Origin: Abditibacteriaceae bacterium
GTDB taxonomy: Bacteria; Armatimonadota; Abditibacteriia; Abditibacteriales; Abditibacteriaceae
NCBI GenBank assembly: GCA_031372065.1
Contig: JANMKN010000391.1
Location: forward strand, 1 to 15,976
Reading direction: 5' to 3'
Length of the DNA: 15,976 nucleotides
Below the pieces are notes generated by a model. The model was given only the letters and a program-made list of their open reading frames with translations. It was not told the DNA's origin and did not search any database. A program made the translations under genes and the position numbers. Positions 6,403-15,676 of this stretch are shown piece by piece (within the stretch, counting starts at the first letter, position 1; each line of letters begins with the position of its first letter).

Positions 6403-9060
6403 ATGTATTCGCCGCTCATCATGTTGCAAGAAATTCTCGAAAAACTGCGCCGCCCGTTGGAAATGGAAGCGAAAACCAACTTCGCCAACGCTGCGATTAT
6501 CGGCGGCCTCGACAACCACGTTTTAACTCAAACACGCCGCGTTTTGGATTTAATGCGTAAAGGTGAAATGTCACGCGAAGGAGAATTTCATTGGCAACGC
6601 TTACACGATTCGTGGACGCAATATGAGCGTTCAGATGCCAAGCGGCGCGAAAGGATTGTGGAGGATTCACAGCGAATTTTGGATGTAATAGAGCGAGGAG
6701 GCTGGGCAATCGAACCGGATAGGGAGAGGAAGCAAACAAAAGCCAATTCACTCATGCCGAATCCTGACTCGGATTTGCCAAATCCGGCCTCGGACAGCCC
6801 AAATCCGGCCTCGGATTTTCAAAAACCGGACTCGGATTTCGTAAATTACCACTCGGATTCGGCAAATCCGAGGGCGGATTCGGCAAATCCGAGGGCGGAT
6901 TCGACCAATCCAAGTGATCTTTCAGCCCCTGAAAGCCCAAAACCGACCCCAAAAAGCGGATTTCGACCCGATTTAGGCACCGAATTGACGTATTTAAAGG
7001 GCATCGGACCAAAGCGCGCCGAGCTTTTGCAAAAATTGGGCTTGAAAACCGTTTACGACTTGCTGTATTATTTTCCGGCGCGCTACGAAGACCGCAGGCA
7101 AGCTAAACCGCTCTCGCACGTCGAAATCGGCGCCAAAGAAGCGCTCGTCGTGACGGTTTTATATCCGCCGTCTACGCGCGTTATGGGCGGGCGCATGAGT
7201 GGCCGCAAAGTCACCAAAGTGCGTGTTGGCGATGATTCGGGCCGCGCCGATTTGCAATGGTGGAATCAACCTTACCGCGAAAAGCAATTTCAGCCGGGAA
7301 TGCAATTGTTCGTTTATGGGAAAATCGGCGAATTCAACGGACTTTTGCAAATTGATTCGCCGGAATTTGAAATTTTAGGCGAAAACGACAAATTGCAAGT
7401 CGGGCGCATCGTGCCGATTTATCCGATGACCGAAGGCTTGCATCAAGGCCCGATTCGCCGCGCCATCCACGGCGCACTGGAAATGTGCGGCGGCAACCTG
7501 GAAGAAATGCTGCCCGATTGGTTGCGCGCCCAAAACGACTTTCCCGACCTTGAAACCGCGTTGCGCCAGATTCATTTCCCCGACAGTTGGGAAGCGCAAA
7601 AGGCGGCGCGCGAACGGCTGGTTTACGAAGAATTGTTCTTGTTGCAAGTGGCGCTTGCGCAAAAGAAAATCGCCGCGCATAGCGAAGAAATTGGTCTGCG
7701 CCATGAAGTCGAAGAAGAAAAAATCAAATCCTTCGTGCGCGCATTGCCTTTCAAATTAACCGGCGCGCAAAAACGCGTCATGAACGAAATTCGCCGCGAT
7801 TTTAAATCGCCGCGCCCGATGAATCGCTTGCTGCACGGCGATGTCGGCAGCGGCAAAACCATCGTCGCGGCCTATGCGCTGTGGACGGCGCACATGACCG
7901 GCCATCAAGGGGCACTTTTGGCCCCCACGGAAATTTTAGCCGAGCAGCATTTCTCCACTTTGACGCGCCTTTTTAAGCCGCTGGGCATCGAAGTGGCGCT
8001 CTTGGAAGGCTCAATTAGATCGAAAAACAAGAAACGCATTCAAGCCGATTTAAGCGAAGGCCGCGTTTCGATTGTCGTCGGCACGCACGCGTTAATTCAG
8101 GAAGGCATCGAGTTCAACAAACTCGGCATTTGCGTGATTGACGAGCAGCATCGCTTCGGCGTTATGCAACGCGCGGCTTTACAGAAAAAAGGCTTTGCCG
8201 GTTTGCGTCCCGATGTTTTGGTGATGACCGCCACGCCGATTCCACGCACCATGGCGCTGACGATTTACGGCGATCTGGACGTTTCGGTTTTGGACGAACT
8301 GCCGCCCGGACGCCAGCCGATAAAAACCGTCAAAATCAAGCCGCAACAACGCGAACGCGCTTATAAATTTGTGTTGGACGAAGTCAAAGGCGGGCGTCAG
8401 GCTTATGTCGTTTGTCCGCTTGTCGAACAATCCGAATCGGAAAGCATCGCGCATTTGCAAGCGGCGACGGCCTTGGCCGAGCGCCTGCGCCACGAAGAAC
8501 TCAAAGACCTGCGCGTGGGCCTTGTGCATGGACAATTAAACGTCATCGAACGCGAAGAGCAAATGGAACTTTTCCGCGCCGGAATGCACGATGTTTTGGT
8601 TTCGACAACCGTTATCGAAGTCGGCGTGGACGTGCCAAACGCCACAGTGATGCTCATCGAAGACGCCGAACGTTTTGGCCTGTCGCAGTTGCACCAATTG
8701 CGAGGCCGCGTCGGGCGCGGCATTCACAAATCGTATTGTGTTTTGATGGGCGACCCGCGCACCGACGACGGCAAAGCACGCCTCGGCGTGATGACCAAAA
8801 CGCAAAACGGCTTCGAGATCGCCGAACACGATTTACAACTGCGCGGCCCCGGCGAATTTTACGGCACGCGCCAAAGCGGCCTGCCCGATTTCCGTTTGGC
8901 GAACATCATTTCCGACGTTGAAATCATCCAGCAAGCCCGCGATGCCGCCCTGCAATTAGTCAGCGCCGACCCGCACCTGCAAGGCGAAGAACACGACGCC
9001 CTCAAACGCGCCCTGCGTAGATTCTGGGGCGAAAAATTGAGCTTGATTCAGGTGAGTTAG
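6403..9060 (+). CDS. recG: ATP-dependent DNA helicase RecG with an N-terminal extension containing a heptapeptide repeat
   Basis: 885 aa. LKGIGPKRA/DLLYYFPARYEDR N-domain, wedge region, LHGDVGSGKT, APTEILAEQH, DEQHRFG, MTATPIPRT, QLHQLRGRVGRG and the TRG motif DLQLRGPGE. An alternative start is ATG 6421. Confidence 0.98.
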   Translation: MYSPLIMLQEILEKLRRPLEMEAKTNFANAAIIGGLDNHVLTQTRRVLDLMRKGEMSREGEFHWQRLHDSWTQYERSDAKRRERIVEDSQRILDVIERGGWAIEPDRERKQTKANSLMPNPDSDLPNPASDSPNPASDFQKPDSDFVNYHSDSANPRADSANPRADSTNPSDLSAPESPKPTPKSGFRPDLGTELTYLKGIGPKRAELLQKLGLKTVYDLLYYFPARYEDRRQAKPLSHVEIGAKEALVVTVLYPPSTRVMGGRMSGRKVTKVRVGDDSGRADLQWWNQPYREKQFQPGMQLFVYGKIGEFNGLLQIDSPEFEILGENDKLQVGRIVPIYPMTEGLHQGPIRRAIHGALEMCGGNLEEMLPDWLRAQNDFPDLETALRQIHFPDSWEAQKAARERLVYEELFLLQVALAQKKIAAHSEEIGLRHEVEEEKIKSFVRALPFKLTGAQKRVMNEIRRDFKSPRPMNRLLHGDVGSGKTIVAAYALWTAHMTGHQGALLAPTEILAEQHFSTLTRLFKPLGIEVALLEGSIRSKNKKRIQADLSEGRVSIVVGTHALIQEGIEFNKLGICVIDEQHRFGVMQRAALQKKGFAGLRPDVLVMTATPIPRTMALTIYGDLDVSVLDELPPGRQPIKTVKIKPQQRERAYKFVLDEVKGGRQAYVVCPLVEQSESESIAHLQAATALAERLRHEELKDLRVGLVHGQLNVIEREEQMELFRAGMHDVLVSTTVIEVGVDVPNATVMLIEDAERFGLSQLHQLRGRVGRGIHKSYCVLMGDPRTDDGKARLGVMTKTQNGFEIAEHDLQLRGPGEFYGTRQSGLPDFRLANIISDVEIIQQARDAALQLVSADPHLQGEEHDALKRALRRFWGEKLSLIQVS
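6755..6924. repeat. In-frame 21-bp tandem array (8 units) inside recG encoding PNPxSDx-type heptapeptides; units are quasi-palindromic and the array inverts internally
   Basis: Unit cores at 6760, 6781, 6802, 6823, 6844, 6865, 6886 and 6907 (exact 21-bp step). Unit consensus is AAATCCG-N4-CGGATT(T/C). 6755-6779 matches the reverse complement of 6861-6885 at 22/25. Confidence 0.92.
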
Positions 9061-11026: not shown

Positions 11027-12010
11027 ATGAAAACCAAATTAAAGATCACACGACTCCATCTGCTTTTTTTGACTGTTGCGCTGCCTTTGGTTGCGTGGGC
11101 GGCGTCTTATAGCGCGCCAACGCAAACCACCGAAATTTGGCGCACCGATTGGCGCGATGCCAAGCGCAATCGCACCGTGCCAGTCAAGATTTACTATCCC
11201 AAAAGCGAGGGCCTTTTTCCGGTGATTATCTTTTCGCACGGTTTGGGCGGCACGCGCGAAGGCTACGATTATGTCGGCAACTTTTGGTCAGCGCACGGCT
11301 ATATTTCCGTTCATTTGCAGCACGAGGGCAGCGACGATTCGGTATGGCGCAATGGCGGAATGCAAGCGATGGGCCGCGCCGCCAATGGCAAAAATGCCGT
11401 TGACCGCGCCGGGGACGTGTCATTTGCCATTGACCAACTGGAAAAGCTGAATAAGGACGCGAATTTCCCGTTGCGCGGCAAGTTGAACTTGCAAAAAATC
11501 GGCATGGCCGGTCATTCGTTTGGCGCCAACACCACGCTGCTGGTTTCCGGTTTGAAATTGCCTTTGGCGAAATCGCTGGCCGATCCGCGCATTCAATGCG
11601 CGATTGCAATGAGTTCACCCGCGCCGACTTTGAAAAATTATGATGAAATTTATGGCGGCATTGTAATTCCGATTTATCATCTGACTGGCACCAAAGATAT
11701 TTCGCCGATTGACAGACCGGGCAGCAGTGCCCAAGACCGGCAATTGCCTTTCAAGCACAGCAAAGGCGCCGATGCGTATTTAACGACTTTTCAAGACGGC
11801 GATCACATGGTTTTTTCAGGTCGTCGGCGCGGCGCTCCCGTGGCCTCGGATGAGCGCAATCACGCACTGATTCAACAAAGCACTTTGGCGTTTTGGGACG
11901 CTTATTTGAAAGGCGACGCAGGCGCCAAACGCTGGCTACAAAACGATTTCGCCATAGAACTGGCCGCTAACGGCACTTTTGAGCAGCGAATTGCCAAAAC
12001 AAAGCCATAA
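11027..12010 (+). CDS. Secreted alpha/beta-fold hydrolase (predicted dienelactone hydrolase / PAF-acetylhydrolase / chlorophyllase-like esterase)
   Basis: 327 aa. Signal peptide (AWA), PVIIFSHGLGG oxyanion region, nucleophile elbow GHSFG, candidate Asp in TGTKD and candidate His in GDHM. Confidence 0.88.
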   Translation: MKTKLKITRLHLLFLTVALPLVAWAASYSAPTQTTEIWRTDWRDAKRNRTVPVKIYYPKSEGLFPVIIFSHGLGGTREGYDYVGNFWSAHGYISVHLQHEGSDDSVWRNGGMQAMGRAANGKNAVDRAGDVSFAIDQLEKLNKDANFPLRGKLNLQKIGMAGHSFGANTTLLVSGLKLPLAKSLADPRIQCAIAMSSPAPTLKNYDEIYGGIVIPIYHLTGTKDISPIDRPGSSAQDRQLPFKHSKGADAYLTTFQDGDHMVFSGRRRGAPVASDERNHALIQQSTLAFWDAYLKGDAGAKRWLQNDFAIELAANGTFEQRIAKTKP

Positions 12011-12076
12011 GTGCAACTTGCCGCGTTATGCGGCTTCAAAACAGGCCGGAAATCTTCCATTTCATCGCGGCGCCGC

Positions 12077-12105
12077 CTGACCCATAGAAGCGCGCCGGGT
12101 AAAAT
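12077..12105 (+). promoter_or_regulatory. Candidate sigma70 promoter for the DUF1553 gene
   Basis: CTGACC (12077-12082), 17 nt, then TAAAAT (12100-12105), 19 nt before ATG 12125. This favours a start at 12125 over GTG 12011. Motif match only. Confidence 0.45.
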
Positions 12106-12124
12106 GGAAAGCATACGAACCGGC

Positions 12125-15100
12125 ATGAACATTTTTCCTTTTTTCAATCGCTTTGTAAGCCCGACGACTGAAGTCGCGGCTCAAGGCTCTGCGAGCCAAT
12201 CGTCGGCCTGCGCCGACGGTTTCATTGTGTCCACGAAGGTGGACATTTGGCGCTGTGCGCCCAGAGCCGCGATTTCAGTCGCCGGGCTTTTCCTGTTTTT
12301 CCTATCGTTGCCTGCGCACGCCAAAGTGGATTTTAATCGGGATATTCGTCCGATTGTCTCCAACACTTGCTTTCTTTGTCACGGCCCCGACCCCAACGCG
12401 CGCAAGGCGAAATTGCGTTTAGACGTGCGCGAAGAAGCCATCGCGCGCGGCGCCATTTTGCCGGGAAAACCTGAAGAAAGCGAGGCTTATAAACGCGTTG
12501 CTTCAAAAAATTCTGATGAAATTATGCCGCCGCCGGAATTGCACAAAGCCTTAACGCCGCAGCAAATCGCCACCTTTAAGCAATGGATTCTCGAAGGCGC
12601 CGAATACAAAAAACACTGGTCATACGAAAAACCGCAGCGCCCCCCCCTGCCCAAAGTAAAAAACGCGAAGTGGTCGCAAAACGCAATTGATAATTTCATC
12701 TTGGCGCGATTGGAAAAAGAAGGCCTCGCGCCGCAGCCTGAAGCCGAAAAAACCGCATTGGTTCGCCGCGTTTCTTTGGATTTAACGGGCTTGCCGCCCA
12801 CTCCCGAAGAAGTCGAAAATTTCGTGTCTGATAAAGCAAACAACGCTTACGAAAAAGTGGTGGATCGCTTGCTTGCTTCGCCCGCTTATGGCGAACATCA
12901 GGCGCGGCAGTGGCTGGATTTGGCGCGCTACGCCGATTCCGCCGGTTATGCCGACGACCCGCCGCGCACCATTTGGGCGTATCGCGATTACGTCATCAAA
13001 TCGTTTAACGACAACAAGCCCTTCGATCAATTTACCGTTGAACAAATCGCGGGCGACCTTTTGCCGAATCCGACCGAAGACCAATTGGTAGCGACAGCGT
13101 TTCATCGTAACACCATGACCAACAGTGAAGGCGGCACGGATGACGAAGAGTTTCGCAACGCCGCTATCGTTGATCGTGTAAATACGACACTAAGTGTGTG
13201 GATGGGCACTTCGATGGCGTGCGCGCAGTGCCACACGCACAAATATGACCCGATCACGCAAAAAGAATATTTTCAAGTGTTCGCGTTTTTTAATCAGTCG
13301 CAAGATTCCGATAAAAAAGACGAAGCGCCGCTGCTTTCGCTTTTCAGCGAAGACCAAAAAATGCAGCGCAAAGCGTGGGAAAGCGAAGCGCAAACCATTG
13401 AAAAACAATTCACTGCGCCGCGCCCTGAAATTGTGGCCACTGCAAAACAATGGGCGCGTGAATTCCCGACCAGTCTCGATTGGAAAACGCTGGCGCCCGA
13501 TACTTTAAAAACCGAATCGGGCGGCCAATTGAAGAACGAAAACGGCCTGCTTTTGGCAAGCGCGGCCAAGCAAGACACTTACACCATCGAAGCGCCGATT
13601 GAAGGAAAACTTTCAGCACTGCGTTTGGAAACTTTGCCCGATGCGCCCTTGCCGGGCAACGGGCCGGGCCACGCGGGCGGCAATTTTGTGGTCACGAAAA
13701 TCGGCGCGATGCTGCTTCCGCCTAACAACGCTCTGGGGCCAAAGGCGCGCTTTGTGCGCGTTGAACTTCCGGGCGCCGGAAAGCTGCTGCAACTCGCCGA
13801 AGTGCAAGTTTTCAGCGGCGGCGAAAACATCGCTTTGCGCGGCGAAGCCAAACAAAGCAGCACCTATGCCGACGCCCAGGCCAAGCGCGCTATTGATGGC
13901 AACATGGCGGGCGAATACGACAAAGGTTCTGTCTCGCACACCGGCGAAAACGATCCCAATCCGTGGTGGGAAGTTGACCTCAAAAGCGAAGTGCCCATTG
14001 ACCGTATCGTGATTTGGAATCGTGTTGAAGCTGGTGAACGCCTCGAAGGTTTTCGCCTTGTGGCGTTGGATGCAAACCGGCGCGAAGTGTGGACAAAAGA
14101 CAAAAATCCCGCGCCGCAATTGCAGGCGACTTTTGATGTCAGTGGTGCGCGTCCGATTTCTTTTAACAATGCCGTCGCCGATTTCACGCAAAACGAATTC
14201 GACGCGCGCGATGTCCTTGGCGGCAACGCTGATAAAAAAGATGCTTCGCGCGGTTGGGCCATTGGGGGCGCGCAAGGGCAAGCGCATTGGCTTTCGCTCT
14301 TGGCCGATAAACCTATTGAAGCGCCGCCCGGTTCGCGTTTGCGCATCACCATTGAGCAAAAATCGCCCTATGAAAATCACGTTTTAGGCCGCTTTCGCTT
14401 GTCGCAAACGACTGATGCGCGCGCGGACGAAACTTTGCGAACGCCATCGGAAATTTTAAAATTGCTGGCTGAAAAGAAATTCGATGACGCGCAAATCGCT
14501 GCTTATTACGCGCGGCAAATCGCGCCGGAACTCAAAAATGAACGGCAAAAATTAGCGACGCTCAACAAAAATATCGTCGAGCAAAAACCGGTCACCGTTC
14601 CTGTTTTGCGCGAAGTGGCTACCGAAGCGCAACGCAAAACGCGCGTCCAATTGCGCGGCAGTTATCTGGCGCTGGATGAAGAAGTTGGCCCGGCTGTGCC
14701 CGCCGTTTGGTCACCCTTGCCCAAAGACGCCACGCCCAATCGTTTGGCTTTGGCGCGCTGGCTGGTGGCCGATGATAATCCGCTCACGGCGCGTGTGGTT
14801 GCCAATCGCTATTGGGAAAATCTGTTTGGCATCGGCCTTGTGCGCACCGTCGAAGAATTCGGTTCGCAAGGCGAAATGCCAACGCATCCCGAATTGCTCG
14901 ATTGGTTGGCAACGGAATTAGTGCGGCAAAAGTGGGACATCAAACAGTTTTTGAAACTGCTGGTGATGTCGAAATCCTACCGGCAATCATCGAAAGTAAC
15001 GCCCGTCTTAATTGAAAAAGACCCGGAAAATATTCTCGTTTCGCGCGGCCCGCGTTTTCGCATGAGCGCCGAAATGGTGCGCGATCAGGCGTTAGCCGTC

Positions 15101-15676
15101 AGCGGCCTTTTGTCGCGCAAAATGTATGGCCCGCCGGTGCGTCCGGTGCGTCCCAATGCGGGCCTGAGCGCGGCTTTTGGCGGTGGCCTCGATTGGAAAA
15201 CCAGCGATGGCGAAGACTCACATCGCCGTGCGCTTTACACCGAATGGCGGCGCACCAGCCCGTATCCGTCGCTGGTCACTTTCGATGCGCCCAACCGCGA
15301 AGTTTGCACCTTGCGCCGCACGCGCACCAACACGCCGTTGCAAGCCTTGGTAACGCTCAACGATCCGGTTTATATCGAAGCCGCGCAAGCCTTAGCGCGC
15401 CGCATTGTTGAGCAAAAAGGCACGCCGTCCGACAAGTTAAAATTCGCCTTTCGCGTGTGCCTTTCGCGTTTGCCCAGCGAAAAAGAAATGCAACGTTTGC
15501 TGCGCTTACATGCTGAAACATTGGCAACTTATAAAGCCGATGAAAAAGCGGCTTTAGCCTTGGCAACCGAACCGCTTGGCCCCGCGCCCCCAGGCGCCGA
15601 CATCGCCGATTTAGCGGCATGGACAACCGTTGCCAATGTGCTTTTGAACTTGGATGAAACTTTGATGAAACGATGA
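12125..15676 (+). CDS. Secreted planctomycete-type cytochrome c / DUF1549 (PSCyt2) / DUF1553 (PSD1) protein with an internal discoidin/F-type-lectin-like domain
   Basis: VDFNRDIRP...CFLCHG...IMPP (PSCyt1). HWSY...RRVSLDLTGLPP...YGEHQARQWLDLARYADS...CAQCHTHKYDP (DUF1549). NRLALARW...NPLTARV.ANR.W...PTHPELLDWLA...NTPLQALVTLND...VLLNLDE (DUF1553). The start is re-called to ATG 12125 (1183 aa); in-frame GTGs at 12227 and 12239 are alternatives. Confidence 0.93.
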   Translation: MNIFPFFNRFVSPTTEVAAQGSASQSSACADGFIVSTKVDIWRCAPRAAISVAGLFLFFLSLPAHAKVDFNRDIRPIVSNTCFLCHGPDPNARKAKLRLDVREEAIARGAILPGKPEESEAYKRVASKNSDEIMPPPELHKALTPQQIATFKQWILEGAEYKKHWSYEKPQRPPLPKVKNAKWSQNAIDNFILARLEKEGLAPQPEAEKTALVRRVSLDLTGLPPTPEEVENFVSDKANNAYEKVVDRLLASPAYGEHQARQWLDLARYADSAGYADDPPRTIWAYRDYVIKSFNDNKPFDQFTVEQIAGDLLPNPTEDQLVATAFHRNTMTNSEGGTDDEEFRNAAIVDRVNTTLSVWMGTSMACAQCHTHKYDPITQKEYFQVFAFFNQSQDSDKKDEAPLLSLFSEDQKMQRKAWESEAQTIEKQFTAPRPEIVATAKQWAREFPTSLDWKTLAPDTLKTESGGQLKNENGLLLASAAKQDTYTIEAPIEGKLSALRLETLPDAPLPGNGPGHAGGNFVVTKIGAMLLPPNNALGPKARFVRVELPGAGKLLQLAEVQVFSGGENIALRGEAKQSSTYADAQAKRAIDGNMAGEYDKGSVSHTGENDPNPWWEVDLKSEVPIDRIVIWNRVEAGERLEGFRLVALDANRREVWTKDKNPAPQLQATFDVSGARPISFNNAVADFTQNEFDARDVLGGNADKKDASRGWAIGGAQGQAHWLSLLADKPIEAPPGSRLRITIEQKSPYENHVLGRFRLSQTTDARADETLRTPSEILKLLAEKKFDDAQIAAYYARQIAPELKNERQKLATLNKNIVEQKPVTVPVLREVATEAQRKTRVQLRGSYLALDEEVGPAVPAVWSPLPKDATPNRLALARWLVADDNPLTARVVANRYWENLFGIGLVRTVEEFGSQGEMPTHPELLDWLATELVRQKWDIKQFLKLLVMSKSYRQSSKVTPVLIEKDPENILVSRGPRFRMSAEMVRDQALAVSGLLSRKMYGPPVRPVRPNAGLSAAFGGGLDWKTSDGEDSHRRALYTEWRRTSPYPSLVTFDAPNREVCTLRRTRTNTPLQALVTLNDPVYIEAAQALARRIVEQKGTPSDKLKFAFRVCLSRLPSEKEMQRLLRLHAETLATYKADEKAALALATEPLGPAPPGADIADLAAWTTVANVLLNLDETLMKR
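12157..12289. mobile_element. 133-bp composite palindromic element (REP-doublet/REPIN-like) lying in frame in the 5' end of the DUF1553 gene
   Basis: 26-bp terminal inverted repeats at 12157-12182/12264-12289 (24/26 match), each with an internal CGAC-TGAA-GTCG-type hairpin, enclose four perfect small hairpins in mirror-symmetric positions. Mobility is inferred, not shown. Confidence 0.75.

Follow-up and report, generated by a model that had tools for sequence, protein, structure and literature searches.

The gene at 12125 in an Abditibacteriaceae contig codes for a predicted exported protein and holds, within the region for its signal peptide, a palindromic DNA structure, and this locus raises the question of what the structure is, how it reached a coding sequence and how it could persist there. 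An earlier note on the window (the whole stretch of 15,976 nucleotides that was analysed), made from its sequence alone, had read the structure as a non-autonomous mobile element whose translated product is tolerated in a signal peptide that is cleaved off. We think it on balance probable that a gene-less doublet, likely copied as single-stranded DNA by a TnpA-Y1 nuclease of subclass 1.2, persists here as a translated part of a cleaved signal peptide; the mobile-element part of this reading we regard as highly secure.

The note had delimited a unit of 133 nt and counted 44 codons. With the ends set by the termini of the repeat family and a covariance model each edge lies 2 nt further in (Table 1), and conservation begins abruptly at a GCC ahead of the outer hairpin in 143 family ends. 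The described layout was otherwise borne out: hairpins h1 to h4 form perfect stems and the arms (12157-12182 and 12264-12289) are complementary at 24 of 26 positions, but each arm also folds into a hairpin of its own with a TGAA loop. One residue of the left outer hairpin, A12164, is unpaired here and is a paired G in a related strain. Across the family a half-unit follows the same plan, with an imperfect hairpin on the outside that has a TGAA or TAAA loop, then in some copies a small hairpin corresponding to h1 or h4, and on the inside a GC-rich hairpin whose loop is C-T-N-C or its complement.

Table 1. Features of the locus and in-frame copies of the element in relatives. Genomes (G) and loci (L) carry our own handles; G000 is the genome of the window.
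Feature	Position or genome	Strand	Remarks
Sigma-70-like promoter match	12077..12105	+	CTGACC-17-TAAAAT, 9/12; -10 box overlaps ATG 12104
Host gene	12125..15676	+	1183 aa; PSCyt1 + PSCyt2 (DUF1549) + F5/8 + PSD1 (DUF1553); predicted exported
Native start and n-region of predicted signal peptide	12125..12158	+	11 codons + 1 nt; aligns with G001 start (DNA)
REPIN-like doublet, two inverted half-units	12159..12287	.	129 nt = 43 codons; host frame stop-free
Left outer imperfect hairpin	12161..12179	.	loop TGAA, one bulge
h1, small variable hairpin	12185..12197	.	in the window's subfamily, missing from sister subfamilies
h2, left inner hairpin	12201..12218	.	loop CTGC; conserved, compensatory changes
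h3, right inner hairpin	12228..12245	.	loop GAAG; overlaps GTG 12227, contains GTG 12239
h4, small variable hairpin	12249..12261	.	mirror of h1
Right outer hairpin	12267..12285	.	encodes AAISVAG, start of the hydrophobic stretch
Native remainder of h-/c-region	12288..12322	+	ends AHA; cleavage predicted before K67 (12323); matches signal-peptide ends of P0003 and of the G001 and G002 orthologues
In-frame copy L155/L276	G011		leader of DUF2961 gene
In-frame copy L295	G003		leader of DUF2961 gene
In-frame copy L377	G009		prepilin-type leader of 54 aa, strong SD; median 15 aa in 35 G000 paralogues
In-frame half-unit L187	G005		in leader; weakest case
In-frame copy L101	G003		RecQ HRDC-HTH linker, most of the linker being element

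Alignment of orthologous 5' ends, proposed in the note as a check, found the element missing from all three orthologues (G001, G002 and G003; 91, 87 and 77% identity over a 326-aa query). The exact empty site did not emerge; the orthologous signal peptides are too diverged to place the insertion junction. The upstream DNA, the TAAAAT box and the ATG are common to the G001 orthologue, in which an ordinary leader then follows; the closest named homologue of the host protein is labelled Abditibacteriaceae. Removal of the 43 codons leaves 23 native leader residues, where P0003 has 27 and G001 has 29; insertion may therefore have cost the gene a few native codons. Four contig runs yielded no joint that bypasses the element (X3 having no coverage of the site), and the first 26 nt of the gene had no match in metagenome_contigs. 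Run X1 returned the entire stretch in one identical contig, which may be the source of this DNA. A contig of a second study carries the element at the same site, in a 145-nt piece over the left junction that aligns ungapped with five differences; the four listed are two silent and two missense changes, too few to show selection on the peptide, and the frame from the ancestral ATG is intact in this related strain over the covered part. In G002 (L039) another inverted repeat occupies roughly the position of the window's element, though it lies immediately 5' of the orthologue's ATG, a new one followed by a short leader.

As the note had stated, the host frame has no stop within the element, which lies inside the predicted signal peptide; the frame is open from ATG 12125 through the element into the PSCyt1/PSCyt2/PSD1 protein. 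The database gene call begins at ATG 12104, within the -10 match of a promoter search that gave 2 sites in 501 nt against 0.1 in shuffles, and since the -10 box overlaps this ATG, 12125 is the likelier start. The resulting leader would be 67 aa long, as against 21-41 aa in nine paralogues, and is predicted to have a hydropathy of 2.5 over 10 residues, a net charge of +1 over its first 47 residues and an AHA before the conserved mature start. Sec signal peptides are cleaved after A-x-A, and the cleavage call at K67 is based on this rule. The best hydrophobic stretch starts in the element's right arm, in agreement with the earlier suggestion that this arm extends the hydrophobic region. We infer from these features that translation would begin at ATG 12125 and that the protein would be exported and cleaved.

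The alternative that survives best keeps the same mobile element but not its full translation: the start would be at an inner GTG, the right half acting as a new signal peptide, or the gene would be largely silenced. GTG 12227 and GTG 12239 are the only in-frame alternative starts within the element, and a start at the former alone yields a plausible signal peptide of 32 aa with positive residues, a hydrophobic stretch and the AHA, while the SD-like sequence at ATG 12125 is weak and a 129-nt structure of about -93 kcal/mol begins 34 nt 3' of that ATG. Di Nocera et al. 2013 (PMC3733652) report in-frame REPs, including N-terminal ones, and caution that most 5'-end REPs in three species may be untranslated; loss of the host gene could moreover be buffered by its paralogues, of which this genome gives 36 matches. 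However, the predicted fold hides both inner GTGs within or next to h3 (predicted unpaired values 0.33 and 0.28, against 0.58 for ATG 12125), the frame from the ancestral ATG is kept here and, as far as it is covered, in the related strain, and in a DUF2961 gene family of relatives the conserved start remains in frame with the gene through each of four different inserts. We regard incomplete translation as unlikely, and translation through the whole element, as argued from the conserved start and the parallel cases, as quite probable.

To survey such cases we drew up a census of 202 distinct family-locus sites, keeping the 179 with 300 nt or more on either side and leaving out the other 23; these sites are the best-scoring copies, mostly from G003, G005, G009, G011 and G019, with G004, G014 and G016 barely sampled. 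Frames were open across a copy in 49 instances, 18 of them with a stop-free homologue downstream in G000, and in 12 of these 18 the gene either starts independently downstream of the element or lacks any start upstream of it. Six of the 179 copies, the window copy included (5 of the 178 others), lie in frame in genes. At L018 and L028 the copies are spanned by long open frames, but neither frame has a homologue free of stops and both were discounted as shadow frames. Beyond the six, the tnpA gene of G005 (L014:1016-1561) reads into its own right half, there being no stop ahead of that half-unit, through which the frame continues. With the window copy excluded, four of the five in-frame copies fall within predicted cleavable leaders. 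Under a null in which codons 1-30 of ORFs having a hydrophobic stretch at the N-terminus make up 2.2% of codons, binomial P is ~1e-6 for four of five and 4e-5 for three of four, values that take no account of the fact that such repeats are known to favour gene boundaries and that include two cases from one gene family, one of which (L295) was first met through the orthologue search and is also in the model's list. The enrichment is therefore a pattern in the sequences, not a proven preference. A profile of 17 element peptides retrieved the host protein alone among 7,999 crowded candidates and was uninformative.

The start of the DUF2961 gene, M-x-x-F-I/T-K, is conserved and overlaps the upstream stop. 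Four of 14 leaders of this gene, G017 aside, carry a long palindromic insert, every one in frame: G011 and G003 have members of the window's repeat family here, while G019 has a GTAG-type doublet and G014 another repeat. In the G003 copy (L295) the sole hydrophobic stretch before the mature protein comes from the element's right arm, with a hydropathy of 2.8. Parallel in-frame cases with a conserved or SD-backed start are L155/L276, L295 and L377. Of the indirect evidence for translation of such inserts, the DUF2961 gene provides the strongest.

The note's expectation of many copies in this genome was not borne out: blastn against the assembly (6.1 Mb, 93.9% complete) gave one further copy, which is partial, and a family profile built from 33 copies found 11 sites at E<0.001 including that of the window, the remainder being partial, decayed or of sister subfamilies and none of them seen in frame within a gene. 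The window copy is the best preserved of its subfamily here. Relatives are richer, the element being present in 14 of 41 genomes by blastn and in 22 of 27 family genomes by the covariance model, which reaches at least 123 matches on both strands in the highest genome. These are multi-copy inverted hairpin doublets, mainly intergenic, that adjoin unrelated genes in either orientation. The commonest feet of the inner hairpin are CCCAG, TGTTG and GGTTG, with unconserved outer flanks; the GT(A/G)G tetranucleotide of REPs and REPINs at the hairpin foot is not a feature of the family, while the cyanobacterial copies have an inward-facing GTAG.

Several observations on repeats lie beside this description. 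Rfam models gave no match at the gathering score in five tnpA loci and only sub-threshold matches in five loci; CRISPR-DR28, the best relevant one, fell just below that score on the inner hairpin (32.5 against 35 bits; L295:2133-2156, L260:1949-2011), and this Rfam entry may be a piece of the present repeat. In relatives, 30 of 206 element ends adjoin a 17-nt motif, TTAACCCAAGTTGCTAC, which has 21 matches in G000. This motif also adjoins at least one family of repeats unrelated to the element, is often present on both sides, is missing at the window copy, and is either a separate small repeat or a preferred target. In IMG/VR, four arm matches lie on one 45-kb contig (L398, L399, L406 and L407), among 12 stretches from viral_contigs. 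Within the window itself, positions 1-236, at the contig end, form an inverted array of 21-nt units of the AGAAATCCAG type with 55-nt arms 84% complementary. Positions 6746-6926 hold a 21-nt tandem repeat with an inverted partner that reads as NPASDSP-type heptads in ORF 6403-9060, which we take to be recG-like. Arrays of 21 nt similar to the latter occur near the Y1 loci L006 and L007.

A different view of the locus would have the structure retained as a regulatory RNA, acting on translation control or mRNA stability, and not as a passenger. Its fold is very stable as RNA (z-score -10.4; -9.6 as DNA; 0 of 200 shuffles equally stable in each), the good preservation of the window copy would fit, and effects of MITEs and REPs on neighbouring mRNAs have been published. 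Against this, the element is missing from every orthologue, its copies stand by unrelated genes in both orientations, the two strands score almost alike over positions 1-137 of the covariance model (108 and 95 bits), and Rfam has nothing at E<=1 within 11800-12600. We consider a retained regulatory RNA quite improbable.

In an alignment of 30 copies, pairing in the four conserved local hairpins extends to 95.7% of 840 cells with 90 double changes, as high as in 0 of 500 shuffles, and the covariation is 0.287, whereas arm-to-arm pairing in the same 30 copies gives 90.1% and 0.157; these are related copies from which the structure was itself derived, so that the figures are not independent tests. 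The difference nevertheless suggests that the half-unit is the functional module. In G005 a 181-aa Y1 gene is bracketed by the left and right halves of the element, and whole or half copies flank related tnpA genes in G001, G004, G011 and G020. A homologue scan of genome_contigs confirmed at least 570 of 602 stretches, of which the best 80 were retained, mainly from Anaerolineae, Cyanobacteria and Armatimonadota. A profile match lies beside the nuclease gene in 67 of these best 80, on both sides in 38, the query alignment having been built partly from element-flanked genes, so that the sample represents nearest relatives and not the entire subclass. The inner hairpin occurs in 74 of the best 80 loci against 2 of 51 control windows, and the outer hairpin in 53 against 3 of 51. 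The linkage spans Armatimonadota, Chloroflexota and Cyanobacteria, and the non-autonomous, single-strand-structured repeat with an HUH/Y1 link that the note had supposed is borne out. A classical MITE with 26-bp terminal inverted repeats recognised by a DDE transposase would fit in size and termini, but the gene beside the repeats encodes a Y1 nuclease, local pairing at the variable arm position is kept in 28 and 29 of 30 copies as against 19 and 18 for pairing across the arms, and target-site duplications of k=2-6 (87, 29, 8, 2 and 1 of 103 copies) show no excess over shuffled-flank means (81, 30, 10, 2 and 0.6), which leaves this origin barely credible.

The note had linked such doublets to RAYT nucleases; the present partner is not a RAYT proper. 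The first enzyme member scores 30 bits with the RAYT model NF047646 (cut-off 80) and 75 with the IS200 model (cut-off 55), the best RAYT E-value over 10 members being 1e-8, and the motif is Y---Q--HH, not the Y---NP of class 2 TnpA-REP enzymes. Residues H55, H57, Y115, Q119 and H123, that is HuH plus Y---Q--HH, are invariant in 10 of 10 linked enzymes, a Y---Q--HH-type signature appears in 53 of 59 tree rows, and in the tree, which is midpoint-rooted and has long branches, the linked enzymes are grouped separately from four or five IS200-type rows (99/97). By this signature the partner is classed as an IS200-like TnpA-Y1 of subclass 1.2. The records closest to the linked transposase are labelled Abditibacteriaceae. 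Element-flanked enzyme genes occupy unrelated loci in different genera; among the top matches listed there are no near-identical duplicates, and one syntenic pair has 81-84% DNA identity. Similar flanks around tnpA and its half-units in several Nostoc genomes (L246, L258, L260 and L262) suggest one inherited locus. The note's expectation of copies flanking a Y1 gene thus holds in relatives, but none of the seven Y1 loci of this genome, at the assembly's 93.9% completeness, is flanked by the window's subfamily. The nearest tnpA of this genome (C5), syntenic with a G002 gene, has a sister subfamily at its flanks, for which there are 72 arm matches on 33 contigs. The window's subfamily thus looks like an orphan in this genome, or else its gene escaped assembly or the sister enzyme acts on both subfamilies.

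In Quentin et al. 2018 (bioRxiv 10.1101/279083 = PMC6006769), Y---Q--HH defines subclass 1.2, found mostly in Cyanobacteria and Bacteroidetes and generally without the terminal structures of IS200. The present enzymes share with that description the HuH and Y---Q--HH motifs, cyanobacterial occurrence and a syntenic member (G000/G002); they differ in having a defined partner of two or three hairpins and in occurring in Armatimonadota and Chloroflexota. Compared by description, the subclass probably overlaps IS200 Group 3 of Bertels et al. 2017 (PMC5581495), described there as non-duplicating and flanked by abundant 16mers. The repeats resemble the REP/REPIN (BIME)-RAYT system in being inverted hairpin doublets, mainly intergenic, with tens of copies per genome, flanking a Y1 gene and occasionally in frame; they are unlike it in that the enzyme is of class 1 and not class 2, half-units span 55-65 nt with two or three hairpins, and the outer GTAG foot is unconserved. 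The cyanobacterial form may be the GTAG-12 or 'double palindromic TIR' repeat of Di Nocera (PMC3733652), and the Nostoc form may have been described earlier under another name. The note's parallel with Rickettsia palindromic elements holds in that palindromes of about 130-150 nt are fused in frame into unrelated genes. It fails in frequency: nearly half of the Rickettsia elements lie in ORFs, as summarised in PMC10969869 and PMC3184786, while ours are mostly intergenic, with 6 of 179 in frame, show no excess of lengths that are multiples of three (21/103 in one set, 24/72 in another) and are linked to a partner nuclease gene. A literature search that left most subscription papers outside its reach turned up no report in which subclass 1.2 is tied to a defined repeat or repeats of this kind to signal peptides.

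Taken in sequence, the preferred reading of a translated mobile doublet would run as follows. The half-unit, an outer TGAA-loop hairpin with an inner C-T-N-C-loop hairpin, would serve as the nuclease's recognition signal, like the ends of IS200/IS605 elements or REPs. The doublet would likely have been inserted as single-stranded DNA by an IS200-like HUH/tyrosine nuclease of subclass 1.2, a mode of mobilisation we infer by analogy with the HUH/Y1 family. Its 43 codons would then be translated within a signal peptide predicted to be cut off, whereby the element likely persists. More tentatively, and with some doubt, there may be a REPIN-like system of subclass 1.2 nucleases across phyla, whose doublets are repeatedly recruited to cleavable leaders (Sec and prepilin), the right arm taking over signal function, with the L295 repeat alone providing the h-region of a working signal peptide in a conserved exported protein.

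In-frame REPs are already known (Di Nocera et al. 2013, PMC3733652), and the class of event is thus not new. Such inserts mislead start-site calls, the database ATG of the host gene being an example. Where these repeats survive in coding DNA, it is mostly within leaders predicted to be cleaved, and one of them apparently forms the hydrophobic core of its leader. For the HUH subclass described in 2018 as lacking one, they offer a candidate DNA substrate with covarying hairpins, on which cleavage and mobility could be tested directly.
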